Shown here piece after piece: positions 14,076 to 31,370 of a stretch of DNA of 64,000 nt. The notes below the pieces were generated by a model. The model worked only from the letters and a program-made list of their open reading frames with translations. It was not told the DNA's origin and ran no database searches. The first letter of the stretch is position 1, and each line of letters starts with the position of its first letter. The translations under genes were made by a program, and so were the position numbers. This DNA is from Candidatus Bathyarchaeota archaeon (lineage in GTDB: Archaea > Thermoproteota > Bathyarchaeia > Bathyarchaeales > Bathycorpusculaceae). The stretch covers positions 1 through 64,000 of the forward strand of contig CAVTBV010000013.1 in the NCBI GenBank assembly GCA_963733095.1, given 5' to 3'.

Positions 14076-14095
14076 TGGCGGGCTCACTGGGATGC
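14076..14095 (-). repeat. tRNA 3'-end fragment including CCA (possible att scar)
   Basis: Reverse complement gcATCCCAGTGAGCCCGCCA; a related GGTTCAAATCCCAGTGGCC piece lies at 14149-14167. Confidence 0.5.
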
Positions 14096-14193
14096 GTTCA
14101 AACTATTAAGCGAATCCAATACAATCAAAGGATAAACCGACGTAGTAAGGCCACTGGGATTTGAACCATAGGACAAGTGGAGATGTCACCCGA

Positions 14194-14236
14194 ACACTTC
14201 ATTATTAGTTAGACTTTTGAAGTTAATGATATACCA
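14194..14236. repeat. Left terminal inverted repeat
   Basis: Reverse complement tggtatatcattaacttcaaaagtctaactaataatgaagtgt. Confidence 0.8.
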
Positions 14237-14296
14237 ACATTGTTAATGTGTTTATTGAATAAAAGTCTTTCACTCGCTTGCGCTGAGTTAACTTAT

Positions 14297-14869
14297 TTAG
14301 CTAAAGTTTCTTGTCCATCCATTATTGTCAGCGATAGTTGGCAATATTGACTCAATAACATAGTGCAGAGGGACATTATCAGATTCGGCATATTGGTATT
14401 CAGCTGTTGTTAACCCTGTTGATTCATTGAATGAGGTGTTTACAGGTAAATGTTGTATTAAATATGCTCCAGCTAAGGCACCCATGTCAGAATCAATATA
14501 TTGTTGAGGAATTTCCCAGAATGAATCGATGAACTGAACGTAATTTTCGCTCCATGTTTTACTCGAATCATAATGTTTTGAGAATATGTCGGTCATGCTC
14601 TGACTTAGCCATGTTACGTTGTTGATATATTCAGGTTTTAGATGCCATTCGTACACAACTTTGGTTGGGGTTGCTGTGGGAGTTGGTGTAGTATAAGAAA
14701 TTGGTGTTGGTGTTGGCATTTGTGTTGGTGTTGGTGACTGATTAGGCGTTTTATGGTTAAGTTGGTTAATTTCTTGTTGCAAGTAACTAAAGCCAACTAC
14801 CATACTCACTATGATAACCAACAAAATAGCAATTATTATTGGGATAATCTTGTTGTTCATTGTATTCAA
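14297..14869 (-). CDS. Membrane-anchored protein with Pro/Thr linker
   Basis: N-terminal TM helix, PTPTQMPTPTP linker, extracellular domain. Confidence 0.75.
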   Translation of the reverse strand: MNTMNNKIIPIIIAILLVIIVSMVVGFSYLQQEINQLNHKTPNQSPTPTQMPTPTPISYTTPTPTATPTKVVYEWHLKPEYINNVTWLSQSMTDIFSKHYDSSKTWSENYVQFIDSFWEIPQQYIDSDMGALAGAYLIQHLPVNTSFNESTGLTTAEYQYAESDNVPLHYVIESILPTIADNNGWTRNFS

Positions 14870-15030
14870 GATAATAGGCTATATTTGAATTAAAAAACTT
14901 GTCCGTAAAAGTCTTTTGACTAAGCTCAGTCAAGTTTTCTTGACTAAGTTAGCTGAAGGATAATGTTTGATTGAATTATATTTTTTCCAGGTTTCCTTAG
15001 CGCTTGCTCAATCTATGTTTCGGAGCATAA

Positions 15031-15180
15031 TCAAGACGATTGAAGAACCAGTTGGTCACCCTCAAGTTTCCAGAAACGTTGGCGACCAGAAGCCAACCGC
15101 TTCAATCTTTTCAGAGGAACACTACCCACATGATAGCCACCTTGACTTCCCTTTTTAGAAACTCTCAAAATTACCTTCAA
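15031..15180 (-). CDS. 49-aa AbrB/SpoVT-like microprotein (copy 2)
   Basis: TTG start; MKVILRVSKKGSQGGYHVGSVPLKRLKRLASGRQRFWKLEGDQLVLQSS; paralogous to adjacent ORF. Confidence 0.65.
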   Translation of the reverse strand: MKVILRVSKKGSQGGYHVGSVPLKRLKRLASGRQRFWKLEGDQLVLQSS

Positions 15181-15324
15181 TTAACACGACTCCAAAACAA
15201 GCCACTCGCCATCCAAAGACCAAGCCAACTTACGACCAGAAGCTACCTGTTTCAATTTTTTCATAGGAACACTACAAATTCGAGAACCATTCTCAGTGGT
15301 AGTTACTTTCAATAAGACCTTCAA
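15181..15324 (-). CDS. 47-aa AbrB/SpoVT-like microprotein (copy 1)
   Basis: TTG start; MKVLLKVTTTENGSRICSVPMKKLKQVASGRKLAWSLDGEWLVLESC; stop abuts the start of copy 2. Confidence 0.65.
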   Translation of the reverse strand: MKVLLKVTTTENGSRICSVPMKKLKQVASGRKLAWSLDGEWLVLESC

Positions 15325-15429
15325 ATAAAGCTATCCTCATCAAACTACCTATCCCATTTCCTTAATTTATGCTTTATTATATTCTATTATTGTCCATATT
15401 CCATGCAGAGTTTTGTGTATTAATATCAA

Positions 15430-15752
15430 GTGAAGGTGGGTGGCACGACGACGTTAACACCACCTTTCTTGCAGAAAGGTGGCGCCAAAGATGATTAACC
15501 GCGCGGTCTTGTTAGTCCGCTCGGTTGTTTTGTTGTGTTGCCCTACTGGGTGAGGGCAACGCAGTCAAGAACCGCATTGTTATTTTTTTTGGTTTTGCGT
15601 TGAGATACTGTGGCGACATAAACCCAAGCCCTGTTGGGTTTCGGTCGTTTCAGCCGACGCGAAAGGTTTATTGTCGCCAATGACAGAGGGACGCATATCA
15701 GCCCCGCATTGTGTTAGTCATTTGACTCCATTTGAATGTGACTAAAACGCGT
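15430..15752 (+). ncRNA. Candidate structured non-coding RNA (unassigned)
   Basis: At least 6 helices, GC-rich island in AT-rich context, G-U pairs work only on the + strand. Confidence 0.5.
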
Positions 15753-15821
15753 TTTACAAAATCCTCAACTATTCCTTTCATTGCAAAAGCTTAAGGCGCA
15801 TTCATGACAAACGCTTAGAAC

Positions 15822-16340
15822 ATGATAACCATAACGGAACAGCTTTGGAGCGATGTAAAGCAATCGACAATAAGGGGAGTTATGAAACTCTTGGATGCTT
15901 CGCAAATGCTTTTACTAAATAATGGAAATAAGGAGGTCTGTGCAGGTTTGTACAGTTACGCTGTCGAAGAATACGGAAAATACCTCAGACTGACTGATTG
16001 TCTAAAGGTGCAAAATGGTGTTGAACTTGATTATTATGATATCTTTAGAGAAAGACGCCATGAAAAGAAGTTTAGAAGAGCCATCGATGACCTAAAGAGC
16101 AAGGACGCTTGGGAATGCACCATTTTAGCAAAGGGTCTCTTTGATCCTGCTATATTTGACCCTAAAATTTTTGATACCAGACCTCCTGTTGTTGTGGATT
16201 TCAATGCACGAATGGGGGTTTTCTATTGCGATTTGGATGATTCAAAACAGAGTTTAAGGGCTATTCCAGAGGTAGATATTGTACTTTTAGAAAAAGCGAT
16301 AATAAAGCTTAGAGAAATTCTGTTACCTCTAATCTCTTAA
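15822..16340 (+). CDS. HEPN AbiV-family protein
   Basis: LLDASQMLL...GLYSYAVEEYGK and RRHEKK match the AbiV-type EExGK / HxxK pattern. Confidence 0.7.
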   Translation: MITITEQLWSDVKQSTIRGVMKLLDASQMLLLNNGNKEVCAGLYSYAVEEYGKYLRLTDCLKVQNGVELDYYDIFRERRHEKKFRRAIDDLKSKDAWECTILAKGLFDPAIFDPKIFDTRPPVVVDFNARMGVFYCDLDDSKQSLRAIPEVDIVLLEKAIIKLREILLPLIS

Positions 16341-17611
16341 TTGGACTGCGATTGTTTGATATAGCCTGATTTTAGCTTCTCCGCATCTTTTTTGAATTGT
16401 TTTACAAACTCTGGGTTGTTCGCTAACTTGTTAGCTACTTGTTCCATTATGCTGTCAGCCATTTCCCTGTAACTCTCGGAATTTGCTATTTGCTTAATCA
16501 TGTTGCTTAAAGCCTCAAGCTCATTTTTAACGTCCTCAAGTTCTTTGCCTTTCTCGTCAAGTTGCCTCTTTATCTTTTGATTTTCCTCAGAAATCACATC
16601 AGTAATTGTTCTCTGGTCAGTTAAGTCACTCTGAAGTCTTTTTATAGCGTTTTTTAGAGGCTCAATTTTCTCAATATCGAGTTTTGGCTGTTCTGTAATG
16701 CTCAAGAATGTTTTTAGTTGGATAAATTTCTGCCTCAGATTTACAGTTGTCAAATATGTGTCGTCTGATTGTGCTATGGCTTTTCCGCAAAGCTTCTTTC
16801 CCGCCGTTAAGCCAATTCCGCTATCGATTGATGCAGAGAGGAACATTTTTCTAAAACAGTGAAATGAAACGCACTTGCCGTTAAGGTTAATCTTTGCTTT
16901 TTCTGTTAAACGCTGTAAGAGCTTGTTTAGCCATTCGTCAGAGATGCTTCTATTTCCATTAGAGGGGAAAAGGTATGGGTTGCCGTTTTTGCGTTCTAAA
17001 GTTGGCAAATAGATTTTGAGAAGGTCAACTGTTTCTTTGCTTAGAAAACCGTACGCTAAGACGCCCTCTTTTACGGTCATAGTTTCGAAGGCTATCGGCG
17101 GTTCTTGGTCTAATAATGGTAAATCGGATTTTTTTAGCGCAATAAAATCGCCTATCCTTAAACCCAAATCCGTTGCCATGATCAAAATTACTCTTTCCCT
17201 CAGGTCAGCTACTTCAAACATTTTACGGACATATTCAATCGTTAGAGGGAAATTCTTGGTTGTTTTAACCGTCTTTCCTATTTTGCTTCCGTTTCTAAAG
17301 CGTATTGGCATTTCATAATATCTGAAAAGTTGCCTAATTCCTAAGGTTTGAACTCTTGCTGTGTTGATGCTTCCTTGAGTTAGAAGTTGACTATGGAATT
17401 TTTCTATTTCTTTTTCAAAGTGTGAAGCTCTGTTTCGATATTCAATCAGGTTTTCTCCTGCTTGTTGGGTTAGGTCTTCTTTTCTAAGCTCAAGGATTTG
17501 TTCTGCGGTCTTTCCGTACCATTCACAGAACTTTTTAAGTCCATGTCTGTAACATTTTCTTGTTTTTGGGTTTGATATTGACTCAAGGAAGACTTGACTA
17601 CTCAATTCCAT
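16337..17611 (-). CDS. Tyrosine recombinase/integrase with C-terminal coiled coil
   Basis: GLRIGD (Arg), FHCFRK (HxxR), DTY (Tyr); N-terminal TRKCYRHGLKKF. Confidence 0.92.
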   Translation of the reverse strand: MELSSQVFLESISNPKTRKCYRHGLKKFCEWYGKTAEQILELRKEDLTQQAGENLIEYRNRASHFEKEIEKFHSQLLTQGSINTARVQTLGIRQLFRYYEMPIRFRNGSKIGKTVKTTKNFPLTIEYVRKMFEVADLRERVILIMATDLGLRIGDFIALKKSDLPLLDQEPPIAFETMTVKEGVLAYGFLSKETVDLLKIYLPTLERKNGNPYLFPSNGNRSISDEWLNKLLQRLTEKAKINLNGKCVSFHCFRKMFLSASIDSGIGLTAGKKLCGKAIAQSDDTYLTTVNLRQKFIQLKTFLSITEQPKLDIEKIEPLKNAIKRLQSDLTDQRTITDVISEENQKIKRQLDEKGKELEDVKNELEALSNMIKQIANSESYREMADSIMEQVANKLANNPEFVKQFKKDAEKLKSGYIKQSQSN

Positions 17612-17636
17612 TCATCCACACTCCATATATTTTGTG

Positions 17637-17679
17637 TGGTATATCAAACTACCTCAAAAGCCAACTAATAGTAAAGTGT
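17637..17679. repeat. Right terminal inverted repeat
   Basis: tggtatatcaaactacctcaaaagccaactaatagtaaagtgt. Confidence 0.8.
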
Positions 17680-18007
17680 ACACCCGCAAAACCCCTTTTT
17701 AGTGCAGTCTTAACAGTTCTTATCTCTAAACGGCTACAACTGACTATCCTCTTTTTATCTAGCTTCTGCGTCCGCAATTAATGTTAAATATTGAATAAGA
17801 CGAGATACAAACAGGTGCTTGTTTGTGGAAATGTCGATACCTTTCTCTTTCATGACTTGAACTACTATGGGTTAACTTTGTCGGCCGGTTTATTACCCGC
17901 ACTTGATGCAGTGATTCTATCTTTTCCATATTTGTTAGCAAAGGCTTCTGCTATTTGACTTCTGCCAGCGTTTTCGACACACACGAATAGAACTTTCTTT
18001 ATGACAA

Positions 18008-18313
18008 TCAACTCTTGGTTCGTTTTACTGGATAGGTCTTTCTTAGACCACGAATTAATTCTTGAGTCTGCTTTTTAGATTGATGTTTTATGGCGCCAGC
18101 AGGGCAAATTGAATCGCATCCAGAACACAATAACACACAGTTGGTTGGAGTCTTTACTATGGGGCGTTTCTTTCCGTTCTTCTCTTCAAAATCAAATGTT
18201 CTAAAGGTGCAGTATTCAACGCATTTTCCGCAGTTTACGCATTTTTCATAATCAATTGTTGGGTACCAAGGTACTTTACTTCGAGGGATTCCGTGCCAAG
18301 TTTCTTCCGACAT
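18008..18313 (-). CDS. 2x[4Fe-4S] ferredoxin family protein
   Basis: CVNCGKCVEYC and CVLLCSGCDSICP; N-terminal GIPRxxVPW. Confidence 0.9.
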   Translation of the reverse strand: MSEETWHGIPRSKVPWYPTIDYEKCVNCGKCVEYCTFRTFDFEEKNGKKRPIVKTPTNCVLLCSGCDSICPAGAIKHQSKKQTQELIRGLRKTYPVKRTKS

Positions 18314-18488
18314 TTTAAAGTCACTTTGAAGGCGCGAGTTCTTATATTTTGTTACAATTGACCCGCTATTTAATCTGATTGGTAGGAAAAAATGATAATT
18401 ATCGTTAGAGACATAAGTTCAGATTTTTCTGAAAAATCAGCAAAGTTTAAATGTTGAGAAAGTTAATGCCATAATCAAGGTAATTTGT

Positions 18489-18740
18489 ATGAGTAGTTGT
18501 ATTGGTGATACCTGCAGAATTGATGCAGTAATATCGATGGATGCGAAAGGACAAATTGTTCTTCCGAAGGATTTGCGTGAAAAGGCAAACTTCAAGCCAA
18601 ACGACAAAATAGCTGTAGTAGCTTGCGAAAAAGACGGTAAAGTATGCTGCATTATGATGTTGAAAGCTGAAAGACTACAGGGTGCCTTAACCAAAACGCT
18701 CGGTCCATTGCTCAAAGGAGTAACTAAACAGGAGAGTTAA
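18489..18740 (+). CDS. AbrB-like regulator resembling HgcAB-associated HgcC
   Basis: CRIDAVISMDAKGQIVLPKDLRE...DGKVCCI. Confidence 0.75.
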   Translation: MSSCIGDTCRIDAVISMDAKGQIVLPKDLREKANFKPNDKIAVVACEKDGKVCCIMMLKAERLQGALTKTLGPLLKGVTKQES

Positions 18741-18743
18741 TTT

Positions 18744-19571
18744 ATGAAAGAAGAAAAAGTTAAGAAACTTGTTAGAAATCGTTATGCAAAAGTTGCTAAA
18801 ACCAAAGGTTCTTGCTGTGCTTCAAATGTCAGCTGCTGCTCAGCTCCGACAAACGACCAAGTTAGCAAAATGATTGGTTACAGCGAAGAAGAGATGAACG
18901 CTGTTCCAGAAGGTGCCAATCTCGGATTAGGCTGTGGCAATCCGACAGCTTTAGCATCTTTGAAAAAAGGCGAGAGAGTTCTGGATTTGGGTTCAGGTGC
19001 AGGCTTTGACTGCTTTTTGGCAGCTAAGAAAGTAGGAAAGCTTGGGAAAGTCATCGGCGTAGACATGACTCCTGAAATGCTTGACAAAGCAAGAGCTAAC
19101 TCCAAAAAAGGCAAATACACAAATGTCGAGTTCAGGCTCGGAGAAATTGAAAACCTTCCTGTCGCAGACAATTCAGTCGACGTTATAATATCAAACTGCG
19201 TAATCAACCTCGCCCCAAACAAGAAACGAGTATTCGAAGAAGCGTTCAGAGTTCTTGCCCCAAAAGGTCGATTGATGGTTTCGGACATTGTCCTCCTGAA
19301 AGAGTTGCCTGAGTCTATTCAAAATAATGTTGAAGCCTATGCTGGATGCATCTCTGGAGCAGAACTAAAAGACAAATACCTTGAACTAATCCAAAAAGCA
19401 GGATTCAAAGAAGTAAAAGTTATAGACGAAAAAACTTACCCGCTTGAATACATCATAAGTGAATCCACATTGAAAGATGCAATCAAAATGGCAAACATGA
19501 CCGAAGAAGAGGTAAAGGAAGCAGCCAACACTGTGGTAAGCGTAAAAGTATCTGCAGTGAAAACGGCATAA
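18744..19571 (+). CDS. arsM: Arsenite S-adenosylmethionine methyltransferase
   Basis: [26 protein letters not shown] and AGCISGA motifs; N-terminal Cys pairs. Confidence 0.93.
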
Positions 19572-19595
19572 ACCCATCAAAAAAGACGGAACACA

Positions 19596-19687
19596 TAGGA
19601 GATAAAAGCTTCACCCCTGCAGTTTTCAGATTGTGGTTGCTTCGAACCCTCTGTGAATGGAGAAATCACCCGCATCACCCCATTTTT
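19596..19687. repeat. Dispersed ~92-bp non-coding repeat, copy A (putative empty recombination site)
   Basis: Aligns with 28684-28776; core tggaga..TCACCCGca..accc..ttttt. Confidence 0.8.
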
Positions 19688-20042
19688 CTTAAAATCTGTG
19701 CTTTATGAAGAAGCAGAAAAAGGAAATATTTGGACAAACATACGTAAACGCTTGCTTGAAAAGTAGTTTTAGGTCAAGGAAGGGCTTTTGCCGAGTATAT
19801 TGTTCCAAAAAGGAGAACAGAATTATCACTTCACAGCTGAGAAAGCAAAGGTGTTATTTTATCTATTATTGAATGAAAGAACAAGGTGAACGTCTAAAGG
19901 GGTTCAGGAATGCCTATTTAAATCTTGATACGAAAGATTTCGTAGGCAAGACCCATTTGTTATACAAATGAAGCGAGAGCCACAATTAGCGATGATTAGC
20001 AAAACTTATGATTTGCCCGCTCAATATTTAATTGTCTAATTC

Positions 20043-20750
20043 ATGGAAAACTATAAACTTAAATCTAAATTGCATAGAAATAGTCTAATCATGGCAACGT
20101 CAAAACAAGAAAACCTAAAAACTGAAGATTCACTTCAAAATGCAGTAAATAAACTTGCAATAATACTCAAAATTATTTTTGAAGATAACCAAGACATCTT
20201 CTTAAAAAAACCAGAAGAAGTTAGTGTGAAAGACCTAAACAATTTGTCAGGCTCATTTGTTTCACTTTCAACACAATTTCAAGAAGTTATCGAAGAATGG
20301 TTTGAATCTACGCCAGAAGGATTTGATGTTTTTAAAAGGTCGGAAGAACTGGAAGACCAGATTGACATTCAAGTATCCGAGGCTGATAAACTGGATTTTG
20401 AGCAAATAAGAAAAATCACCAATAGACTGAATAGAATTAACGATGCTATAGAAAGTTTAGAGAGAGTATCGGTTTATCTTAAATATTATGAAGATTTGTG
20501 CAAACAAAAAGGTCTTACGATGGATGCTAACTTGTCAGAACTTTTTAGAGTTTTTGGTATTGAGGAATTTATCAAAATCCTGAGAATTGAGGCAAAGAAA
20601 CATCGGAAACAAATAGAGAGAAATAATTTGTACAATAATCTGTACAATCAAGCTAAATTGAACACAAAGACATTGAAAATAGCTTATGCAGCCTTGGGAA
20701 TCTCTGTTTTGTCCGCTATACTTGCTGTGTTGGGTTTGCTCTTGAAGTAA
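20043..20750 (+). CDS. Hypothetical helical protein with C-terminal TM anchor
   Basis: 235-aa ORF, charged helical body, hydrophobic C-terminus. Confidence 0.65.
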   Translation: MENYKLKSKLHRNSLIMATSKQENLKTEDSLQNAVNKLAIILKIIFEDNQDIFLKKPEEVSVKDLNNLSGSFVSLSTQFQEVIEEWFESTPEGFDVFKRSEELEDQIDIQVSEADKLDFEQIRKITNRLNRINDAIESLERVSVYLKYYEDLCKQKGLTMDANLSELFRVFGIEEFIKILRIEAKKHRKQIERNNLYNNLYNQAKLNTKTLKIAYAALGISVLSAILAVLGLLLK

Positions 20751-20919
20751 AAAATATTTTTGTAAAAGTAATGCGCTACGGTAAATGGGGATGCAAATCA
20801 ACTCCGCTATTTTCTAAATATTAGCTTTCGTGTTTAGATGAGTTATCAAGCTAATTGTATTAAACTACGTTTATGACGTCGAAAGTTAAGTTTGTCAAGC
20901 TTTTCGCTTTGATTTTATT

Positions 20920-21075
20920 TTAGATTTTCAGCTTCTCAGCGAAGGCTTCAGCATGTTTGAGGTCTTCTTCATTAGGTCTTCCTTTGTTTAATCCACCAAA
21001 ATACTTGAGAAATTTGTTAGTGTTGAAACCTGCACAACTAAACTCGTTCGCAATCGTGTAGCCTTTGGATTGGAC
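20920..21075 (-). pseudogene. C-terminal fragment of flavodoxin-like protein
   Basis: SKGYTIANEFSCAGF...GGLNKGRPNEEDLKHAEAFA without N-terminal half. Confidence 0.65.
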
Positions 21076-21232
21076 AGTTGTCTTTAAGGACGTGTCTCTG
21101 ACCGCCTTATGAAGTGATTGGGTATTTAAAATTATGCGTCTATTTGACAAATGTTCATTTTCTGAGCGCGCGCTGGCGAAACCTTAAATAGAAAATAAGC
21201 CGATAGGCGCTAACATAGAGAAAGGGCTCAAA

Positions 21233-21691
21233 ATGAAGGTTTACGAAAAGTACGCGTGGGTGATATTACTAGCTGTAGGGCTGTTATGGTTGGTGGTTGG
21301 AATCGTTGCTGTGTTCCAGCCAGAAGGAATATTTGAGGGGGACGCCCAATCTGTCACAAACATGCCGTGGAGTGAGCTCAAGGCTTCGAGCCCTGAGGCT
21401 TCCAACTTTGTCATCTTCGTCTATGGGCAAATGGGTCTGCTCAAGATAAGTTGGTCATTGTTCATATTAGCCATAACTCTAACGGGTTATCGTAGGGGAG
21501 AAAAATGGGCTTGGTACATAATGTTATTAGCTCCTATCCTGCTGGTGAGCGATGCAGTTTTCAGCGCCGTCTTCATCGGCGACATCAACCAATTACTAGA
21601 TTTTATTCCAATTACAACCATAACGATGCTTGGGCTACTTGTGCCCTACAGGATATTCTTCCCAAAGAAACCATCGAAGGTGCAACAATGA
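21233..21691 (+). CDS. Four-TM hypothetical membrane protein
   Basis: Hydrophobic helices; YRRGEKWAW. Confidence 0.75.
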   Translation: MKVYEKYAWVILLAVGLLWLVVGIVAVFQPEGIFEGDAQSVTNMPWSELKASSPEASNFVIFVYGQMGLLKISWSLFILAITLTGYRRGEKWAWYIMLLAPILLVSDAVFSAVFIGDINQLLDFIPITTITMLGLLVPYRIFFPKKPSKVQQ

Positions 21692-22092
21692 ACATAAAAC
21701 TGGTACTGAGTGCAGCGCTTGCATTTGTTGCGTACTTTTTAGGCATTATAGCTGATGCGAACCATAATACGGACAGCGTGGTTTATCCCGCCGCATGTTT
21801 TTCCAAAATATTCCTCTTCTTAGTCGCCATTCCACTTGCAAACTCGGCCGGTAAAAGCATCAGAAAACAGTTAGGCACAACGGGGATTCCAGGTTTAAGA
21901 TTCACAAGTTGGATCCTATACGGAGTTGCAATAGTTCATTTTGCCTTTTTCTTTATGTGGCCCACTATTGCAAGCGGAAATACCCAGCTCCCAGACGGGC
22001 AAATAACGGTTGATGCAACGATCTTTCTTATGGCGTCGATGTTTATGATTGCAGACGCCCGGAATTCGCAAAAAAACAAAATTGGAGTGTAA
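21688..22092 (+). CDS. Hypothetical membrane protein
   Basis: ATGA overlap with upstream gene; four hydrophobic segments. Confidence 0.7.
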   Translation: MNIKLVLSAALAFVAYFLGIIADANHNTDSVVYPAACFSKIFLFLVAIPLANSAGKSIRKQLGTTGIPGLRFTSWILYGVAIVHFAFFFMWPTIASGNTQLPDGQITVDATIFLMASMFMIADARNSQKNKIGV

Positions 22093-22100
22093 TCTTGAAA

Positions 22101-23039
22101 ATGAAAGCAGCCATTTACGAGAAATATGGATCACCCGAGGTATTGAGCCTCAAAGAAATGGAAAAACCAGTTCCTAAAGACAATGAAGTACTGATAAAAA
22201 TCCGCGCCACAACTGTAGCAGCTGGAGATATACGGATGCGAGGCTTCAAAGTTCCAACGAAATTCTGGCTCCCTATGCGATTAGCTTTAGGTTTAACAGG
22301 ACCAAAAAATAAAGTCCTTGGGATGGAAGTATCTGGGACAGTCGAGACAATTGGCAAAGGTGTAGAAAAATTTAGGGTTGGTGATGAAGTCTTGGCTGCA
22401 ACCGGATTTGGTGGGGGATATGCCGAGTATATTTGTCTTCCAGAGAAAGACGTTGTGGGAAGAGTAGTTATCGAGGTCGCAAAGAAACCGCCAAATTTGA
22501 CTTTTGAGGAAGCTGCTGCTGTTCCCATTGGCGCAATGACTGCGCTGGCTTTTCTTAGGAAAGCAAAGGTCAAGAACGGGAGTAAAGTTCTTGTTTATGG
22601 AGCTTCGGGAAGCGTTGGCACTTACACGGTTCAGCTTGCTAAATATTTCGGGGCAGAAGTTACCGGTGTATGTAGTGCTTCAAATTTGGAGTTAGTCAAA
22701 TCTTTAGGGGCGGATGTTGTGATTGATTACGCCAAAGAAGATTTCGCCAAAAATGGTCAGAGGTATGACTTGGTTTTTGACGCTGTAGGCAAAATTTCGC
22801 GTTCAAAGGCGAAGGGATCGCTGACAGAAAACGGCGTTTTTCTTTCCACTTGGGGGTCCGGAGGCATGGAGCCAAATGATTTATCAACACTTAGCGGTCT
22901 AATTGAAGCTGGCAAATTAAAAGCAGTCATCGATAAAACGTACCCCTTGGAGCAGATTGTCGAAGCCCATCGCTACGTAGAAGCTGGGCACAAGAAGGGA
23001 AACGTCGTCATAACTTTGCAGCATAGCTTGCCCGCTTAG
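22101..23039 (+). CDS. NAD(P)-dependent oxidoreductase, MDR/quinone-reductase-like family
   Basis: GGYAEY, VLVYGASGSVG and HKKGNVVI motifs; no Zn ligands. Confidence 0.9.
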   Translation: MKAAIYEKYGSPEVLSLKEMEKPVPKDNEVLIKIRATTVAAGDIRMRGFKVPTKFWLPMRLALGLTGPKNKVLGMEVSGTVETIGKGVEKFRVGDEVLAATGFGGGYAEYICLPEKDVVGRVVIEVAKKPPNLTFEEAAAVPIGAMTALAFLRKAKVKNGSKVLVYGASGSVGTYTVQLAKYFGAEVTGVCSASNLELVKSLGADVVIDYAKEDFAKNGQRYDLVFDAVGKISRSKAKGSLTENGVFLSTWGSGGMEPNDLSTLSGLIEAGKLKAVIDKTYPLEQIVEAHRYVEAGHKKGNVVITLQHSLPA

Positions 23040-23112
23040 TTGAATGATTGGCGAAATAGTCAACTAAGAGGCGGTTCAGATACTCTCCCCAAACAGGGAG
23101 CGCCTCCAAAAG

Positions 23113-23532
23113 TTAAATTACGTTTTGCGCCAAAGATACCCAGCTAAAGCTATTATGACAAGTTTCCATGCTGACCAGATTAGCCAGGCATACGTTTGGT
23201 TCAAAAATAACCCCCAGAGCAAGCACACGATTCACTACCGAAACGGCAATAACCAGAGGCGGTGCCCACTTTAATTTACTTAACAACCCAAAGACAGAAA
23301 CAGCGTAAACCACTGCGTAGCCCAAAAGAATGGCGCTTGTTATCATAACGGCGCCATTTTTCCCCGCAAAACTTGCAATCAAACCACCGTATACTGACAA
23401 CTCTCCTAAGGAAGGGTCCCACAGAAAAAACGCCGCAGCTAAAACGTCCCCCGCAATATTGAGTATGACCAGAACTATCAGAATTTTGGTAATTAGGTTA
23501 GCATGCGATAGCTTTGAAGTTTTGGCGGTCAT
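23113..23532 (-). CDS. Hypothetical membrane protein
   Basis: Hydrophobic ORF; C-terminus may be frameshifted. Confidence 0.6.
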   Translation of the reverse strand: MTAKTSKLSHANLITKILIVLVILNIAGDVLAAAFFLWDPSLGELSVYGGLIASFAGKNGAVMITSAILLGYAVVYAVSVFGLLSKLKWAPPLVIAVSVVNRVLALGVIFEPNVCLANLVSMETCHNSFSWVSLAQNVI

Positions 23533-23826
23533 AGCTTTCTTTTACGTCTTTTTTCCTTATTTAACACTTGTCTCCGAACACGCGCATCTCATCATAAAAA
23601 CAAGATATCTCCTGATACGCCGCGCTTTTTTTGCCCGGGTGGCAAGTATAAGGGAGTTGAAAACTGCGTTGCTGTCTCTTTAATTTGAACGGTTAGAAGC
23701 TTTATGTTCAAAATAACCCATTTCACCATCAGCACCAAAGCTCCTCAGGTTTTGTTTGGCTAAAATAAACTATAAAGTGAAAAAGTATTTTTCGGGGTGG
23801 CTTAATCCCCGCTTGTAGCCTTTGTA

Positions 23827-24189
23827 TTAAGCTTGGATTGGTTTTCTGTTGGTCGTCTTTTGGATAGCTTCGGCAACGATGAATAAGCCAACGAGTAGGA
23901 TCACTGTCGGAATGAATGGCATTGCAAATCCCGCGATTCCGGCACCGCTTAAAGCGAATGCAAGCATACCTATGAAGAGACTGAATTTGCTAATGGCGAT
24001 TTTCCCGGTTTTTCTGGCAATATTTAGAGAAATTAAAATGATTCCAACGCCCAGAGCTACGTAAATTCCAGTGTCCATCTGATAGTAAGTTGATGTTATC
24101 CATCCGACTCCAAGCAGAATAATAAATACGCCCCATGCTATTGTGTCCAATACTTTGTTTGTTATCGAGTTAGCATTCATTTTTTTCAC
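23827..24189 (-). CDS. Four-TM hypothetical membrane protein
   Basis: LDTIAWGVFIILLG...; overlaps stop of upstream gene. Confidence 0.75.
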   Translation of the reverse strand: MKKMNANSITNKVLDTIAWGVFIILLGVGWITSTYYQMDTGIYVALGVGIILISLNIARKTGKIAISKFSLFIGMLAFALSGAGIAGFAMPFIPTVILLVGLFIVAEAIQKTTNRKPIQA

Positions 24190-24463
24190 CTCCGTTACTC
24201 ACTTTCTCTTGCCGTTGATGACTACACCCACATGAATTTGAGGATCCTTCCTCAACTTCGATTTCTGCTATGCCCGATGCAAATCTGTCTATTTGTGTCA
24301 TTGCGGTTTTTCGGACAAGCTTTGAGACTCCGATTGCTTCCGCGATTTCTTTTTTGTTAGCTCCGCCATCGAGAGCTTTTTTGATTATGTTTCTCAGGCA
24401 GGGTTGGCAGTTTGCGTTAAAAGCTGCTCCAACTGCAATCAGCAACTTTGTTTTAGTTTCCAT
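24170..24463 (-). CDS. Carboxymuconolactone decarboxylase/AhpD-like protein
   Basis: KLLIAVGAAFNANCQPC...GANKKEIAEAI. Confidence 0.8.
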   Translation of the reverse strand: METKTKLLIAVGAAFNANCQPCLRNIIKKALDGGANKKEIAEAIGVSKLVRKTAMTQIDRFASGIAEIEVEEGSSNSCGCSHQRQEKVSNGGEKNEC

Positions 24464-24564
24464 ATCAGTCCTTCCATCTTGTTCTTCTACTTCTTTATTG
24501 GGAGTAGAAAAATATATAAGATTTTTCTGACATCTACTTCTCAGAAGGCAGGAGAACACAATTT

Positions 24565-25320
24565 ATGAAAGATGAAGTAGTTGCCCGAGACCGAATAGTC
24601 TTAAGCCTAAAGAATCTAGCCTTATCGACGTATGAAGCGGAGGTCTATGCAGCACTACTGGCTCATCCAACAATGACCGCAGGTGCACTGTGTAAAGAAA
24701 CAGGAATTTCCGACACCAAGATTTACTATGCACTTGATGGACTCTCAGAGAAGGGAATGCTGATCGTTCGCAACGCTAACCCTAAAATCTACAAACCAGT
24801 TCCACCTAAGGAAGCAATCGCAAATTTAAAGCGGCGACTAACCGAAAAGCTAACCGATGAGTTAAAAGAAGCAGACGTTTTAGTCGATATGCTATCACCA
24901 ATCTATGAAAGCGCCGAAAAACCGGAAGAGTTGGAAGTAGGCTACATCATAAGTGGAAAAAACAACATCACAAACAGAATGAAAACCTTGATTGGAAATG
25001 CCAGAAAAGAAATAACATTATTCGTCGCGTATCCTGAGCTCTTCAAAGAACTGAGCGCATCGCTTCGCGAAGCCCAAGAGAAACGCAGGATTAAACTGAA
25101 TATCGCGATGACGGAAGAGATGCTTAAAACAGAAAACATCAAAGGTCTTGGCGACACACGCCAATTATGTTGCTCGGTGACTTTGCTAATATCTGATTTG
25201 AAAACGCTTGTCACGGTGTCTGATTGGGCTTTTTCCGAAACTGCTATGCTCTCGCAAGACCAAAACCTAATTCGAGTAGCAAGAGACTATTACGAGAACT
25301 CCATGTGTTATGCACCTTAA
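24565..25320 (+). CDS. TrmB-family transcriptional regulator
   Basis: LSTYEAEVYAALL...KIYYALDGLSEKG, PKIYKPVPP. Confidence 0.9.
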   Translation: MKDEVVARDRIVLSLKNLALSTYEAEVYAALLAHPTMTAGALCKETGISDTKIYYALDGLSEKGMLIVRNANPKIYKPVPPKEAIANLKRRLTEKLTDELKEADVLVDMLSPIYESAEKPEELEVGYIISGKNNITNRMKTLIGNARKEITLFVAYPELFKELSASLREAQEKRRIKLNIAMTEEMLKTENIKGLGDTRQLCCSVTLLISDLKTLVTVSDWAFSETAMLSQDQNLIRVARDYYENSMCYAP

Positions 25321-25411
25321 ATGCTCACGGATGAAGCCAACCTGAATATCTCTTGACCACTTTTACTACAGCATTAAATTAATATATCAAAATTGATCAT
25401 AAGGAAAATAC

Positions 25412-25867
25412 ATGTTATCAAATCAGGAGCTTTTTCAAAAGGCAGTTGCATACTTTGCTAGCGGTTACAACTGCACCCAAAGCGTGCTCTTAACGTTATG
25501 CGGACACATTGCGCCAGAAGTGAAGAGTGAGTTGGTTCCAAAAATAGGGAGCGGATTTGGCGGCGGCATTGGATTATGCGGGTGTGTTTGCGGGTCGTTA
25601 ACTGGCAGCATTATGGCTGTTGGAATCAAATATGGATCTAACGATGCAGGAGAAGAAAAAAACCTCATGGCCTACGCTAAGGCTAACGCACTTTACCATC
25701 TGTTTGAGAAGCAACACGGATCCGTTTTGTGTCGTGAACTAGTCAAATACGACCTATCCAAACCTGAAGAGGTAGCCAAAGCAAGACAAGCAGGAGTTTT
25801 TGAAAAAGTATGTGTCAACTTTGTTAAAACTGCTGTTGAAGATTATCTCGAAATAGAAAACAAATAA
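25412..25867 (+). CDS. C-GCAxxG-C-C family redox protein
   Basis: GYNCTQSV, GFGGG..CG..CGSLTG, HGSVLCREL, final Cys. Confidence 0.88.
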   Translation: MLSNQELFQKAVAYFASGYNCTQSVLLTLCGHIAPEVKSELVPKIGSGFGGGIGLCGCVCGSLTGSIMAVGIKYGSNDAGEEKNLMAYAKANALYHLFEKQHGSVLCRELVKYDLSKPEEVAKARQAGVFEKVCVNFVKTAVEDYLEIENK

Positions 25868-25909
25868 TCAAACTATCGTGGCACCTATAAAGTGACATCT
25901 TGAATTTGG

Positions 25910-26362
25910 TTAGTGCTTGTCTGATTGGCGTAAACTCTCTGATCCGTACAGCTTTTTGTATAGATAGCCAATAGCTACTCCAACAAAGAGAAACCTTGGA
26001 ACATTAAGTATTGTGCCAAAGAGGAAATAATAAAGGGCATCACTCGTCCCAAAACTTGAAGGGGCTTCCAGTAGAATTGCACCAATGACTAGGGCAATAA
26101 TGCTTAGTATTAAGGATTGTAGAATTGGATTTTTTGTCGGAATCTTGTCAAAGAAACGAACCAAGACAAAGCTAATTAAAAATCCGATAATCATGCCAGC
26201 AGGCAAAGAACCGACCCAGACCGTTTCCGCGCTCCACCGTGCAGCTCTATAATCCACTGTGATGGGAAACAGGGAAGTTGCGATGGAAACTGCCCAGAAG
26301 GCTAATCCACCCACGACCGCCAGTACTACTATCTTTCTCCAGACATCTTTTGATTGAGTCAT
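25910..26362 (-). CDS. Hypothetical membrane protein
   Basis: Four TM segments. Confidence 0.7.
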   Translation of the reverse strand: MTQSKDVWRKIVVLAVVGGLAFWAVSIATSLFPITVDYRAARWSAETVWVGSLPAGMIIGFLISFVLVRFFDKIPTKNPILQSLILSIIALVIGAILLEAPSSFGTSDALYYFLFGTILNVPRFLFVGVAIGYLYKKLYGSESLRQSDKH

Positions 26363-26386
26363 CTTTTTTCTCCCTCTTTACTTAAT

Positions 26387-27046
26387 TTAGTCAGTCTTTT
26401 TCGGTTCCTTAACAGCCATAATCAAAAGCCACGCAGTAAGAGAAATTTCCGCAATGAAGCTAATTGCATTTCCTGGATAAGCTAATATTTTGTAGTCGGG
26501 GAGAAGGAAGCCCTGTAAGAACCAGCTCATGTTGCCGAAGAAATCAAGGATCAGCAGTAGACCTAAGAATTTGGGAAGGGAGCGCGATTTGTAAACTAAG
26601 TATCCAAGGGGAAGTAGCCAAGCGCTGAAAAATATCTGGGCGATTAGAAAGCCATTTGTGTATAAATTGAGCGAGGACATTGCCATGGCTTGCAGTTGGC
26701 CTGTTTGAAATACGCTTAAGTAGTTAGCTCCGCTCAAGAACTGAAGGGCGGCAAATAGATTTAGCGCATTAAGGCACTCTACCGCGACACCGCCCAAGTT
26801 TAGTACCAAGAGCAACAAAGCCAGGTTTTTGTTAACCGGTTTTAACAACACATATAGTGCCCATGCCGTTAAAACAAAAAACACTGCAGATACTAGCTCG
26901 GTCACAAAACCGAAACGGAAAAACAATTCAGAACCCATAATATTATTGGCTGTGGCCGCTGCATCTCCGGATACAATAATATTTCCGCGAACATACGAGG
27001 CTAAGACAGTAGTTAAAATGAAAATGAGATAAAACAATCCCGCCAT
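26387..27046 (-). CDS. DUF4386-family membrane protein
   Basis: AGLFYL...GDAAATANNI...LYVLLKPVNK...LGYLVYKS.LPK; true start may be slightly upstream. Confidence 0.8.
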   Translation of the reverse strand: MAGLFYLIFILTTVLASYVRGNIIVSGDAAATANNIMGSELFFRFGFVTELVSAVFFVLTAWALYVLLKPVNKNLALLLLVLNLGGVAVECLNALNLFAALQFLSGANYLSVFQTGQLQAMAMSSLNLYTNGFLIAQIFFSAWLLPLGYLVYKSRSLPKFLGLLLILDFFGNMSWFLQGFLLPDYKILAYPGNAISFIAEISLTAWLLIMAVKEPKKTD

Positions 27047-27224
27047 TCTTGCGGTTTTACGTGGCGATAAATCTGCGACTGGGTTTGTTGTCGTAAAGAT
27101 TCTCCGTATGCTTTCATTCCTCTATATGGTGCTAATAAATTTTTCTAAGCTAGCAATCGCAAGGCAGACGAACCTGGCAGACCCGCCTTCTTCCAAGGTT
27201 GCTTTGTCAGGCTCTGTTATTATG

Positions 27225-27355
27225 TCTTACAGTTATGACGACATTTCCCTTTTGTGTCCCGCTTAAACATATCGATGAGCCTTGGCTATCTGTTCCAGCG
27301 GATAGTATCTGTCTATGACCGGCTTAATTTTTCCCGTTTCTAGCAGTTCATTGAG
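27225..27355 (-). pseudogene. C-terminal remnant of MDR oxidoreductase
   Basis: [39 protein letters not shown]; paralogous to end of 22101-23039. Confidence 0.7.
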
Positions 27356-27573
27356 CAAATTATTCCTTCAATACTGAACTTGGGGAGTTCGCCAACGAAA
27401 CCCTCGATTAACACTTTGTCATCGCCATCGCTAGGTATGGCGAGGCGTTTGACAAAATTCTTTGAAGCTAATTCTACCGAGAACATATGACCAGAGTTTT
27501 TCTGTGGGTTTGTCATTTCAATTCCTCGCATACTTCTCCATGAACCTTCATCTTTACCCCTCTTTCTCTTCAA
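27340..27573 (-). pseudogene. Truncated hypothetical protein
   Basis: HMFSVELASKNFVKR...VLIEGFVGEL runs into the oxidoreductase remnant. Confidence 0.45.
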
Positions 27574-27935
27574 GTTAGCGCCTATCAGCTTGTTTTCTTT
27601 ATAAAGTTTGTCATAGACGTAGCAACGCTTGCCATAGACTTAGCCATCATGATTTGCGATTCTCAAATCTTCTTCTATTAAAGACGGTTACCAATTCGGT
27701 TTAGTGGCAAAATCATTGTATACTGTACCTCTTACACACCCAAACTTCACACATAAATCTTGAACAATCTCAGTGGATGATAAGCTGCTTCCCTCTTGCT
27801 TTAGCAATTCTAAGCTTCTTGGTCACATTTTCTAAGGTTTTTGTAATTTGACTCATACAAGTTTTCAAAATTATAACTTGATACATAATTGCATGAAAAA
27901 AGATAAAAAAAGAGAATGGTATTTTTCTATTTTGT

Positions 27936-28388
27936 TTACTTTGAATTCTTTGTTTGCCGTCGACTAACAAATATGGCTAGACCAGCGATTGCTGCAACGC
28001 CAGCTACAAGAACTATAATGCATGTGCGGTCGTCAGATTGTGCTTGAGTTGCAACAAGATTCGGGTTATCTGATTCACTATTTGCAGAATCATATAAGGT
28101 TGAATCATCGGCGGAAGCTGTACTGTTGTCTTGGGGTCTATCTAAGAGTGGATTGTCATCTGTTGTTGCGGTACTGTTATCTTGGGCAGTATACAAGGTT
28201 GGGTTTTCATTAATTATTTCACTGTCGGCGTCGGTTGGTGTTTGATTTGGGATTCGAGTTGAGTCAAGTTCAGCACTTGCACTTGAGATTGCCGTTGCAG
28301 ATAACAAAAATAAGGTCAATACTGCAACGGTTAAGAATTTTTTTCCCTTGATTTGTGATTTATTTTCCATTTTTAACCACTTATGCAT
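27936..28388 (-). CDS. Secreted low-complexity protein with C-terminal TM anchor
   Basis: Signal peptide, QDNSTA(T/S)xDD repeats, TM helix plus basic tail. Confidence 0.75.
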   Translation of the reverse strand: MHKWLKMENKSQIKGKKFLTVAVLTLFLLSATAISSASAELDSTRIPNQTPTDADSEIINENPTLYTAQDNSTATTDDNPLLDRPQDNSTASADDSTLYDSANSESDNPNLVATQAQSDDRTCIIVLVAGVAAIAGLAIFVSRRQTKNSK

Positions 28389-28683
28389 CTACGTGGTAGA
28401 ATGTTGAATTTAGCACCATGCATTAGAACATAACATCATAATTTTTGGAACAGGATGTTCTAAACAATAGAACGGACACTTTAGAAATCCTCTAAGATTT
28501 GAATTACGCCAAAACATTTTGTAGTGGTTTGTCAGTTGGAGGTTTATACTTGAAGCTGAAATTCAAACGGTTTTGGCTAATACTGTTAATTAGTTTTTTT
28601 CCGCACCTAAACCTGTTATTTTGATAAAATTTCCTTATTTCATTTCTGGTTTTTCAGAATCATGCGAAATAAATCCCGTTTTT

Positions 28684-28776
28684 TAGGATATAGAAGCTAC
28701 ACCCCCTGGCAATTTGGGCAGCCGTTGCATCGAACCCTCAGTGAATGGAGATGTCACCCGCATTACCCAATTTTTT
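28684..28776. repeat. Dispersed ~92-bp non-coding repeat, copy B (putative empty recombination site)
   Basis: Aligns with 19596-19687; tggagatgtcacccg (28746-28760) is identical to 14178-14192. Confidence 0.8.
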
Positions 28777-28843
28777 GTAGAAGGCGATAGGAAAAAGTGA
28801 TGAACAAATTCCTTTCATTCAAATCTAAGGATCAAGAATTGGC

Positions 28844-29065
28844 TTATGGGCAACAATTACAGTTGTCGGTGTTGAGCCATTTTTTGTGCCACTTAAAGTT
28901 CTCGCAACCTTCTTTGGATTCGCAGCACATACATTGGTCTTCACTTGTAGCTTTATTTATCATATCGATTAGCTCCTTCTCCGCTTCAGGGTCAAGGCAT
29001 AGCTTTTTGACTTGTTTTTCAAATTCGCCTGTCAAATGCACAAACTCCTCTATAATTCTAACCAC
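28844..29065 (-). CDS. Small Cys-rich hypothetical protein
   Basis: CMCCESKEGCENFKW. Confidence 0.5.
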   Translation of the reverse strand: MVRIIEEFVHLTGEFEKQVKKLCLDPEAEKELIDMINKATSEDQCMCCESKEGCENFKWHKKWLNTDNCNCCP

Positions 29066-29087: not shown

Positions 29088-29175
29088 TGGTGCAGGGGGT
29101 GGGATTTGAACCCACGAACCTCTGAAGGATAGGCTCCTGAAGCCTACGCCTTTGACCATGCTCGGCGACCCCTGC
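29088..29175 (-). tRNA. tRNA-Leu(CAG), CCA encoded
   Basis: GCAGGGG/CCCCTGC acceptor, TAGGC-ttCAGga-GCCTA anticodon arm, long variable arm, GGTTCAAATCC. Confidence 0.97.
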
Positions 29176-30646: not shown

Positions 30647-31054
30647 CTATAACCCACCAGGCGACAGCTGAACAATCAATTGCTTCACTTTGCTCTCGAT
30701 TTCATCCCTAATTTGCCTAACCTTTTCGATAGGTTTGCCTTTGGGGTCTTCAAGGTTCCATTCGATTGTAGGTTTAAAGAATGGTCCGGGGCAAACTCCT
30801 TGGTCGTTGCAGCCCATCGTAACAATCAAGTCTGAGTCCATAGCCATCTTTGCAGTTATTAATTTTGGCTTGCTGGTTGAGAGGTCAAGGTCTATTTCCT
30901 TCATAACTTTGACCACCAACGGATTGATCATGCTGGCAGGCTTGTTACCTGCGCTTGAAGCCGAAAACTTATCTGCTCCATGTTTCTTAGCAAACGCTTC
31001 TGCCATCTGACTCCTGCCAGCGTTCTCTACGCAGACAAACAAAACCTTCTTCAT
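30647..31054 (-). CDS. arsC: Arsenate reductase (LMW-PTP fold)
   Basis: FVCVENAGRSQMAEA, TMGC..CP and W.LEDP motifs; next to arsR/acr3. Confidence 0.88.
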   Translation of the reverse strand: MKKVLFVCVENAGRSQMAEAFAKKHGADKFSASSAGNKPASMINPLVVKVMKEIDLDLSTSKPKLITAKMAMDSDLIVTMGCNDQGVCPGPFFKPTIEWNLEDPKGKPIEKVRQIRDEIESKVKQLIVQLSPGGL

Positions 31055-31067
31055 AAGCAGCCCTTGT

Positions 31068-31355
31068 CTACGACAACGCGGCTTCTTGGAGTTTTTCGAT
31101 GGTTTTTTGAGTTTCCTCTTCGGATGGATGAGCGATTGCTTCAGCTGGACAGATGTCTTCACAGCCCCTGCAGAAAACAACACATCTGTTGGGGTTTACA
31201 ATGGTTCTCTTTTTGCCGTCTACCTCTTCAAACTTGAAGGTGCTCATGTGGCAGAAGTCAACGCATTTTCCACAGGCAATACATTTTTCGTAGTCAATTT
31301 TTGGGTCCCAAGGTATTTTTTCTCTGGGGATTCCTTCGTATGTTTCTTCAGACAT
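31068..31355 (-). CDS. 2x[4Fe-4S] ferredoxin family protein
   Basis: CIACGKCVDFC and CVVFCRGCEDICP; paralogue of 18008-18313. Confidence 0.9.
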   Translation of the reverse strand: MSEETYEGIPREKIPWDPKIDYEKCIACGKCVDFCHMSTFKFEEVDGKKRTIVNPNRCVVFCRGCEDICPAEAIAHPSEEETQKTIEKLQEAALS

Positions 31356-31370
31356 TCGAATAACCTTTTG

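Follow-up and report, generated by a model that had tools for sequence, protein, structure and literature searches.

A stretch of 64,000 nt, here called the window, from a 2.84-Mb Bathyarchaeia genome assembled in 16 contigs (G000) contains a tyrosine-integrase element of about 3.5 kb that interrupts a non-coding site. Two uninterrupted copies of this site are located farther along the same strand. The locus raises the question of what such sites are: landing places of the element, exchange points of a cassette-like system in which a recombinase shuffles modules of genes, as a preliminary description of the window had proposed, or signals with a function of their own. TrmB-type regulators and the named sources of integrase relatives assign the genome to Bathyarchaeia. 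The genome was compared with 40 relatives, 24 of the same genus and 16 from other genera of the order. The conserved part of the site can be assigned, with good support, as the predicted chromosomal attachment site (attB) of the element family. With moderate confidence, we regard the sites as attachment-type (att-type) junctions that were left by modules accreted at tRNA genes, and the conserved end of which is now a multi-copy attB.

The site and the element that enters it

The features that carry the argument are given in window coordinates:
14144..14192, plus strand: left half of site A, halted after CACCCG by the element insertion
14193..17686, minus strand: integrative element of about 3.5 kb, one CACCCG core counted
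16337..17611, minus strand: tyrosine integrase of 424 aa, PF00589
17681..17700, plus strand: right half of site A, CACCCG-CAAAACCCC-TTTTT, by direct reading
19593..19698 (profile envelope), plus strand: site B, of 'type 1', with the motif at 19658-19673 followed by the T tract
28680..28785 (profile envelope), plus strand: site C, of type 1, with the motif at 28746-28761
29088..29175, minus strand: tRNA-Leu(CAG), 300 nt to the right of site C, detected by ARAGORN/Rfam

The CACCCG core is present at both ends of the element (14187-14192 and 17681-17686). Removal of the element restores an intact target, and sites B and C carry both halves of this target contiguously. The left half of site A is composed of the reverse complement of a tRNA-Pro(GGG)-like 3' end (14144-14166), the likeness of which is backed by local alignment, a 10-nt spacer, and TGGAGATGTCACCCG (14178-14192). 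The left arm of site B is a conserved non-tRNA sequence of about 50–75 nt, which ends in TTCGAACCC. The 15-mer TGGAGANNTCACCCG has three matches in the window, compared with a mean of 0.00 in 100 dinucleotide-preserving shuffles of the window. The coordinates that the preliminary description had given to the three sites were upheld by direct reading, as were their common orientation on the plus strand and the T(C/T)GAACC block that precedes each of them. The block turned out to be the T arm of a tRNA 3'-end remnant. Weak inverted arms had also been described around TCACCCG; the symmetry is present, but only at the GG/CC and G/C positions. Just upstream of site A, at 14076-14103, we noticed by eye a putative decayed stretch that resembles a tRNA 3' end. 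The short word TTAAGCGAATCCAA from this stretch recurs on contig 7, where it flanks another tRNA remnant.

A second copy of the element, the integrase of which is 80% identical to that in the window, is inserted on contig 9 directly after the CACCCG of a site with a different tRNA remnant. Insertion at CACCCG took place twice in this genome, independently. Among 30 loci of other Bathyarchaeia genomes that encode a relative of the integrase, the right half-site is positioned 75 nt upstream of the integrase start in about 15 of the 24 that could be evaluated; in relatives it consists of an A run, GGG(G), 3–5 nt, and G followed by CGGG(T/A/G)G. The opposite junction, GGAGAYATC(A/T)CCCG continuing into element DNA, was found at six loci of relatives and at two in this genome. 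The 6-bp core is identical at both ends in all eight elements, with CACCCG in five and CTCCCG in three, and the core type of an element matches the subfamily of its site. No tRNA gene is located within 6 kb of any of the 30 loci. Since the T arm is absent from four of the eight targeted sites, the motif, and not the tRNA remnant, is the target. It is well supported by these alignments that the conserved part of the site is the attB of Bathyarchaeia-wide 3–6-kb tyrosine-integrase elements, with the predicted exchange at CACCCG or CTCCCG. The proposal that a dispersed non-coding site serves as the target of the element is borne out by the two insertions, the shared right half-sites, and the matching cores of the eight elements.

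Joining the two ends of the element produces an imperfect inverted repeat (about 15+15 nt) around ACACCCGA, which is a putative attP-like structure. The integrase matches PF00589 with 41.7 bits (cut-off 27.1) and the integrase families phrog_1 and phrog_216. When it is aligned to XerA 4a8e, the Arg (LRIGD), HCFRK, and the terminal Tyr are in register, and Lys replaces the second His position. The protein has 1200 relatives, and those with a named source are from Bathyarchaeia or Bathyarchaeota. Its C-terminal extension of about 120 residues past the catalytic Tyr (window 16337-16700) is Lys/Glu-rich and repeat-like, with spurious weak family matches, and the relatives differ in length at the C-terminus (374–505 aa).

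The family of sites extends far beyond the element. A profile was built from five full-length copies, and the scan with it revealed more than 20 members rather than the three of the preliminary description: the genome contains 23 matches at E<=0.01, the five seeds included, and weaker, decayed copies rank below them. The interrupted left half of site A is among these, at E=0.03. Groups of sites with one orientation each are in the window (three sites) and on contig 9 at 109–121, 228–231, and 256–265 kb; further groups are on contig 7 at 76–79 and 83–86 kb, on contig 3, and on contig 12. The spacings within the arrays range from 0.2 to 9 kb. The strict 16-mer (TGGAGANNTCACCCG with a trailing C) occurs 11 times in this genome and 34 times across 13 of the 40 relatives, and its carriers are 11 of the 24 same-genus genomes and two of the 16 genomes of other genera in the order. 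The reversed 16-mer, used as a control, has no match in any of the 41 genomes. In the single-contig genome G003, one strict motif is on the plus strand at 0.19 Mb and six are on the minus strand between 0.48 and 1.87 Mb; the pattern may represent strand polarity along the chromosome, for which the points are too few to judge.

A site is about 58 nt long and consists of a tRNA 3' end in reverse complement (acceptor and T arm), about 10 nt of spacer, and (G)TGGAGATRTCACCCGC-N4-5-CCC(C)-T5-7. A search for the loose motif plus T tract provided 47 sites with the consensus ggGgggGa.TTGAACCCC.c....AGTGGAGATGTCACCCGCAta.CCCCtTTTTTTtt. In these sites and in an alignment of 41 copies (A4), conservation spans positions -27 to about +30/+31, and there is none beyond. 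The right part of about 45 nt comprises the spacer, the pseudo-palindrome GGAG-N4-CACC, which overlaps the core (T)CACCCG, then C-N4-5-CCC(C), and the T tract. The left arms match the genome's own tRNA-Leu(TAG) at 25/25 positions, tRNA-Ala(TGC) at 24/25, tRNA-Cys at 22/23, and, in site A, tRNA-Pro(GGG) at 19/20. The match always runs from the CC of the CCA end to just after GAACC(C), in the 5' strand of the T stem. Type 1 sites, including B and C, have the non-tRNA left arm of about 50–75 nt, which also ends in TCGAACCC. This arm was found twice without the motif, and the similarity halts at TCGAACCCT there too. Sister subfamilies have other pseudo-palindromes, for example a CTCCCG core after a different small hairpin. 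CACCCG-type and CTCCCG-type sites are paired 87–97 nt apart in G016 (twice) and G013, at L023 5691/5778 and 10701/10790 and at L021 3934/4031. Sites of the two types are also present about 600 nt apart in G003 (L011 3448/4056).

A dispersed family could arise if a unit of about 60–130 nt multiplied by itself, as a non-autonomous element or as 'solo' sites remaining after module loss, and served only as a landing pad through which no blocks are moved. Type 1 units of about 130 nt recur at five to seven loci here and at one in G002, each time with unrelated flanks, as expected for such a repeat. The sites are intergenic, without bias in orientation to the neighbouring open reading frames (ORFs; 17/16/14/11 among 58 sites), and separate ordinary genes, including a core-like gltD-type gene pair. 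The copies grade from fresh, near-consensus ones to decayed ones, and the 11 strict-motif copies of this genome compare with at most seven in any of the 40 relatives. However, in the copies read in alignment A4, the unit is bordered neither by terminal inverted repeats nor by target duplications, and the left arms are unrelated tRNA ends, not one element sequence. No transposase is linked to the sites, and the one clear insertion polymorphism is a gene-bearing module of 640 bp and not a bare site. We consider a self-spreading miniature repeat quite unlikely.

The motif is nearly invariant among genomes in which core genes are about 70% identical, and also in genomes without the integrase. This would be in agreement with a small RNA gene or a regulatory signal (a tRNA-like RNA, the 3' piece of a split tRNA, a terminator, or a promoter family) that is targeted in the same way as tRNA genes. 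The T arm, the second small hairpin, and the T tract are readable as RNA in principle, and RNAalifold gives a long stem for the minus strand of type 1 units. However, the stems, calculated from six type 1 copies, are weak on both strands, with next to no covariation, and rest on G-U pairs, with two of 26 pairs compensatory and a covariation term of +0.48. All combinations occur at the third pair of the second hairpin, without covariation, and a mismatch in the T stem falls precisely where homology breaks off. At the gathering score, Rfam gives only tRNA-Leu in the window; a scan by E-value around site B gave chance-level matches only, and neither Rfam nor ARAGORN detected RNA genes in the window beyond tRNA-Leu(CAG). 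Neither strand has any conservation at promoter distance, the orientation of the sites to the neighbouring genes is random, and no tRNA carries the motif within five mismatches. A role of the sites as RNA or regulatory signal is, in our view, highly improbable.

Several more specific candidates were rejected. A terminator or promoter is contradicted by the lack of orientation bias and of conservation at promoter distance. A split tRNA or mini-tRNA was discarded, since the motif pairs with acceptor ends only in Leu-like copies and no tRNA holds the motif. The remnant of a partitioned integrase gene was discarded because the reading frames are broken between copies by indels. The likeness to origin-recognition boxes was dismissed, as the sites form direct arrays and not inverted pairs. 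The tRNAs that ARAGORN left as 'missing' are likely at least partly misses of the tool. For example, a likely tRNA-Leu(TAA), read by eye at about 10400-10485 of contig 14 of this genome and not reported by ARAGORN, adjoins a 433-aa integrase. Sites with the TGGCGATATCGCCA-type palindrome are located 13–17 kb downstream of it.

Proposed accretion of modules beside tRNA genes

Arrays of sites are positioned 3' of tRNA-Leu, in matching orientation, four times: in the window, on contig 9 at 224–231 kb, in G021, and in G013. The identity of the remnants fits the adjoining tRNA-Leu on contig 9, whereas the arms in the window are Pro-like and type 1 instead. The tRNA-Leu(CAG) of the window points in the same direction as the tRNA remnants of the sites and likely anchors the array. 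The space between it and site C is occupied by a mini-module:
28844..29065, minus strand: small Cys-rich ORF, 73 aa by ORF call

The product of this ORF ends in ...CMCCESKEGCENFKWHKKWLNTDNCNCCP, and no Pfam or PHROG family was matched. Its gene has a DNA identity of 84–91% in eight other same-genus genomes, far above that of core genes, and adjoins the tRNA-Leu 3' end in five of the nine genomes (this one and four others). In four of the eight (G001, G021, G064, and G095), the tRNA 3' end beside the Cys-rich gene continues into spacer and motif, not into the tRNA body. Contigs of two further metagenomes contain the same join of tRNA 3' end and motif, with other spacers. The tRNA-Leu is intact here, and in those four genomes its place is taken by a tRNA 3' end with the motif. 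Recombination at or beside the T arm therefore probably created at least some of the sites, as judged from these sequences.

The insertion polymorphism mentioned above is a segment of 640 bp in G003. It is composed of one site, a zinc-ribbon ORF, and a second, decayed site, and it separates genes that directly adjoin one another in G000. It occupies about 3843-4474 of L014 (G003:C1:1870500-1878500) and corresponds to about 196.8 kb of contig 9 in G000. A 16-bp direct repeat (AGARAAAGGATTATAT) borders the segment, and its left copy occupies the T-arm position relative to the adjoining motif. The zinc-ribbon ORF was rejected as a constant partner of the sites, because it is near only three of 21.

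Based on these observations, the origin of the sites can be proposed. Small integrative modules would have piled up successively beside tRNA genes, mostly tRNA-Leu, and the site junctions would have arisen as the distal, attR-like ends of the modules. Most modules would since have lost their integrase, or may never have had one. Further recombination would have spread and reshuffled the junctions. The conserved junction end would then have been reused as attB by the 3–6-kb tyrosine-integrase elements. Given accretion and later rearrangement, the partition of the island into blocks would be a by-product.

GG-N7-ACCC is an outline common to the T arm (GGGATTTGAACCC) and the motif (GGAGATGTCACCC), and in our reading each of the two kinds of junction lies directly behind ACCC and one further base. 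Because of the common outline and the like position of the junctions, we speculate that one integrase, or a relative of it, could act on both. Just as conceivably, T arms may have recombined with each other through short homology. A more far-reaching idea is that the site is a composite att with two cores, a T-arm-like one (GG-N7-ACCC) and CACCCG. Both cores would be used by the integrases of transient 3–6-kb elements to mobilise integrase-less modules in trans among tRNA genes and sites across Bathyarchaeia species, which we regard as doubtful. Such a two-core system would be an archaeal counterpart, built from tRNA remnants, of the gene shuffling by integrons and cis-mobilizable elements (CIMEs), a comparison that is just as tentative.

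Several observations weigh against the accretion of modules at tRNA genes. Within one array, the remnants stem from several tRNAs (Pro-like, type 1, Leu, Ala, and Arg), which is not predicted by simple accretion at one tRNA. Type 1 sites are without any tRNA acceptor part, and half of the targeted sites have no T arm. No intact module that carries both an integrase and the predicted T-arm attP was found, and the classical tRNA-adjacent integrase elements of this genome do not carry the motif. The near invariance of the motif in genomes without the integrase could mean a host function instead. The direct repeat around the G003 insertion is unrelated to either core. In two comparisons, the spacer-motif segment is less conserved than the cargo on both sides and looks genome-specific, so that no single crossover point accounts for the pattern.

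Gene blocks between the sites

The DNA between the three sites of the window and the remaining ORFs of the element have the following organisation:
17817..19571: block 1, between sites A and B, three genes
18008-18313, minus strand: 4Fe-4S ferredoxin, block 1
18489-18740, plus strand: small AbrB/MazE-fold protein, block 1
18744-19571, plus strand: S-adenosylmethionine (SAM) methyltransferase, Methyltransf_31, block 1
19699..28679: 9-kb 'module', a mosaic of at least four sub-blocks
14297..14869, minus strand: element ORF of 190 aa, no family assigned (Pfam, PHROG)
15040..15315, plus strand: element ORF of 91 aa, no family assigned
15822..16340, plus strand: element ORF of 172 aa, no family assigned

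The preliminary description had delimited an fdx-hgcC-like-arsM module at 17.7–19.6 kb and a 9-kb module of small membrane and redox genes. The ferredoxin and the methyltransferase of the former are present; the 'hgcC-like' assignment was not confirmed, as Pfam gave only MazE_antitoxin (26.6 bits). In the latter (19.7–28.7 kb), small redox, membrane, and regulator genes were found. The bin 14351-14967, which covers the 190-aa ORF of the element, has a summed contig depth of 91–267 in three other metagenomes, and the remaining element has almost none. This ORF may be a very common gene of the element family or a repeat.

Sites often mark the seams between variable gene blocks that are shared horizontally, and this holds for sites A, B, and C. 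At site B, a conserved methyltransferase operon meets DNA that is found in this genome only. In G056, G085, G064, and G012, a flavoredoxin-type gene follows within 40 nt after the methyltransferase, and the homologue here is at about 33.3 kb. In the contig-9 array, all five block seams coincide with sites, and each block has its best match in a different genome. A 550-bp block on contig 12 fits exactly between two sites and is 91% identical to G056. Cargo blocks are 83–95% identical between species, compared with 65–71% for the neighbouring core-like gene at 29.4–30.4 kb. The described partition of the island into modules thus stands for the boundaries at sites A, B, and C and for the five seams on contig 9. 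It does not stand for the interior of the 9-kb module, which has three or four seams without sites. The sub-blocks of this module (about 21165-23667, 23826-25866, 25946-27322, and 27889-28582) are each 85–91% identical to a different locus in other species. There are no sites at its inner seams at about 23.7, 25.9, and 27.3–27.9 kb, and the contigs of another metagenome skip 23667/23704->25897 and 25971->27198 without sites.

Paralogous ferredoxin-type stretches are located at 17817-18317 and 30696-31356 of the window. The gene order in other species is ferredoxin, a homologue of window 31.9–33.1 kb, methyltransferase, and flavoredoxin. The ferredoxin-methyltransferase-flavoredoxin set appears here as two partial copies, at 17.8–19.6 and 30.7–33.7 kb, which flank the island.

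The coincidence of sites with block boundaries, the different best matches of the blocks, and the exact fit of the contig-12 block agree with an active cassette system. In such a system, the integrase of the element would act in trans, excise modules between direct-repeat sites as circles, and reinsert them at other sites. The single orientation within arrays with their spacings of 0.2–9 kb is consistent with this as well. Furthermore, in this genome and in G002, unrelated cargo is enclosed by the same pair of a Leu-like and a type 1 site, and spacer-motif segments look homogenised within one genome. However, homology does not stop at CACCCG. In shared cargo flanked by sites, the stretch of high identity begins behind the T tract and ends at the T arm, directly after GAACC. 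The homologous cargo is mostly siteless: no site (E<10) was found near the homologues of contig-9 blocks in G001, G002, G059, G076, G085, and G060, that is, at six of seven loci, G079 being the only one with a site, and none is beside the homologue of the contig-12 block in G056. The siteless seams of the 9-kb module, at which metagenome contigs skip blocks, and the presence of module genes on both strands also argue against cassettes. An integrase relative, counted at E<=1e-40, is present in one of the 24 same-genus genomes, whereas sites are present in 11 of them. Among the 20 PF00589 matches in this genome, no integrase was found beside the arrays, except for the two 3.5-kb elements inserted in sites.

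No circular junctions were seen in the metagenome contigs, on which, rather than on raw reads, the metagenome comparison rests in every run; uncovered stretches, such as most of the 3.5-kb element in metagenome X1, a wetland sample in which half of the sampled sequence words were found, carry no information. Joints that go back, 29110-29113 -> 28742-28746, read as a tRNA-Leu fragment followed by the motif, as in G001, and are not circles. The joint 14740->29707 was disregarded, since one of its sides is only 21 letters long. Little synteny is preserved with the same-genus genomes. The 430-aa neighbour is one member of a multi-copy family, and the cation-efflux gene matches 14 of the 40 genomes.

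The earlier proposal that a recombinase excises or shuffles modules, as in pdif modules or integrons, is partly contradicted, because homology breaks at the T arm or T tract, many seams and most of the homologous cargo are siteless, and the integrase is scarce. The expected breaks of gene content at CACCCG were found at the T arm or T tract instead in comparable cargo, and the expected circles of modules did not appear. We consider an active cassette system unlikely, and mobilisation of modules in trans is a live minority reading.

Relation to known systems and significance

The tycheposons of Prochlorococcus are tRNA-seeded islands with partial tRNAs scattered within them, as described in 10.1101/2020.12.28.424599. 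Islander-type islands are reported to be seeded at tRNA genes by tyrosine-recombinase elements (PMC4383910). The arrays in part resemble these islands, in the intact tRNA at one end, the displaced tRNA 3' fragments as marks of successive or degraded integrations, the few resident integrases, and the confinement to hot spots. Unlike in tycheposons and Islander islands, each array contains fragments of several tRNAs, each fused to one motif of about 45 nt. Furthermore, the integrase element enters the motif and not the tRNA, and no tRNA is near its 30 relatives. Tandem integration of elements occurs in archaea, as stated in PMC8371274.

The accretion of modules at tRNA genes that we favour also has features of other accreted DNA. 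Streptococcal CIMEs beside integrative elements and the tandem ssrA islands of Dehalococcoides are reportedly products of site-specific accretion. Common features are integrase-less DNA between direct att sites, repeated integration at one locus, and potential mobilisation in trans. The differences are that the modules here are 0.2–2.5 kb long, that the sites are dispersed over at least seven loci per genome, and that mobilisation in trans is only conjectural here.

The similarity to integrons and pdif modules consists in same-orientation repeats between small blocks and in a tyrosine recombinase that, as predicted from sequence, acts at the repeat. Unlike in integrons, there is no integron-type integrase or attI next to the array. 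The site differs from attC in being composed of a tRNA remnant and a 12-nt pseudo-palindrome, and the module genes are on both strands. In contrast to pdif, it has one asymmetric core and no XerC/D half-sites, and the sites of an array never alternate in orientation. The homology of blocks does not end at the core, unlike in integrons and pdif modules. Archaeal integrons have reportedly been described in one preprint. Some insertion sequences and group II introns are specific for attC sites. As in their case, a multi-copy recombination site is exploited by a second element, but here a tyrosine-integrase element, which has a palindromic attP, acts as the invader.

A literature search on integrases and mobile elements of Bathyarchaeia, at the level of titles and abstract openings, found nothing on such sites, and the supplements of the papers on Bathyarchaeia viruses and tycheposons might list att sites. 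A survey of Bathyarchaeia viruses mentions integrases only in passing in the part consulted (PMC10541130). Little has been published on the mobile DNA of Bathyarchaeia, which are abundant and uncultured. The multi-copy site is a marker for flexible parts of genomes in metagenome bins. The palindromic attP and the site of about 30 bp are a defined substrate pair for testing an archaeal integrase. The sites allow asking whether small accessory genes, which are 83–95% identical between species in which core genes are about 70% identical, travel through them. The mobilisation of modules in trans, if true, would add a new way in which archaea exchange genes.

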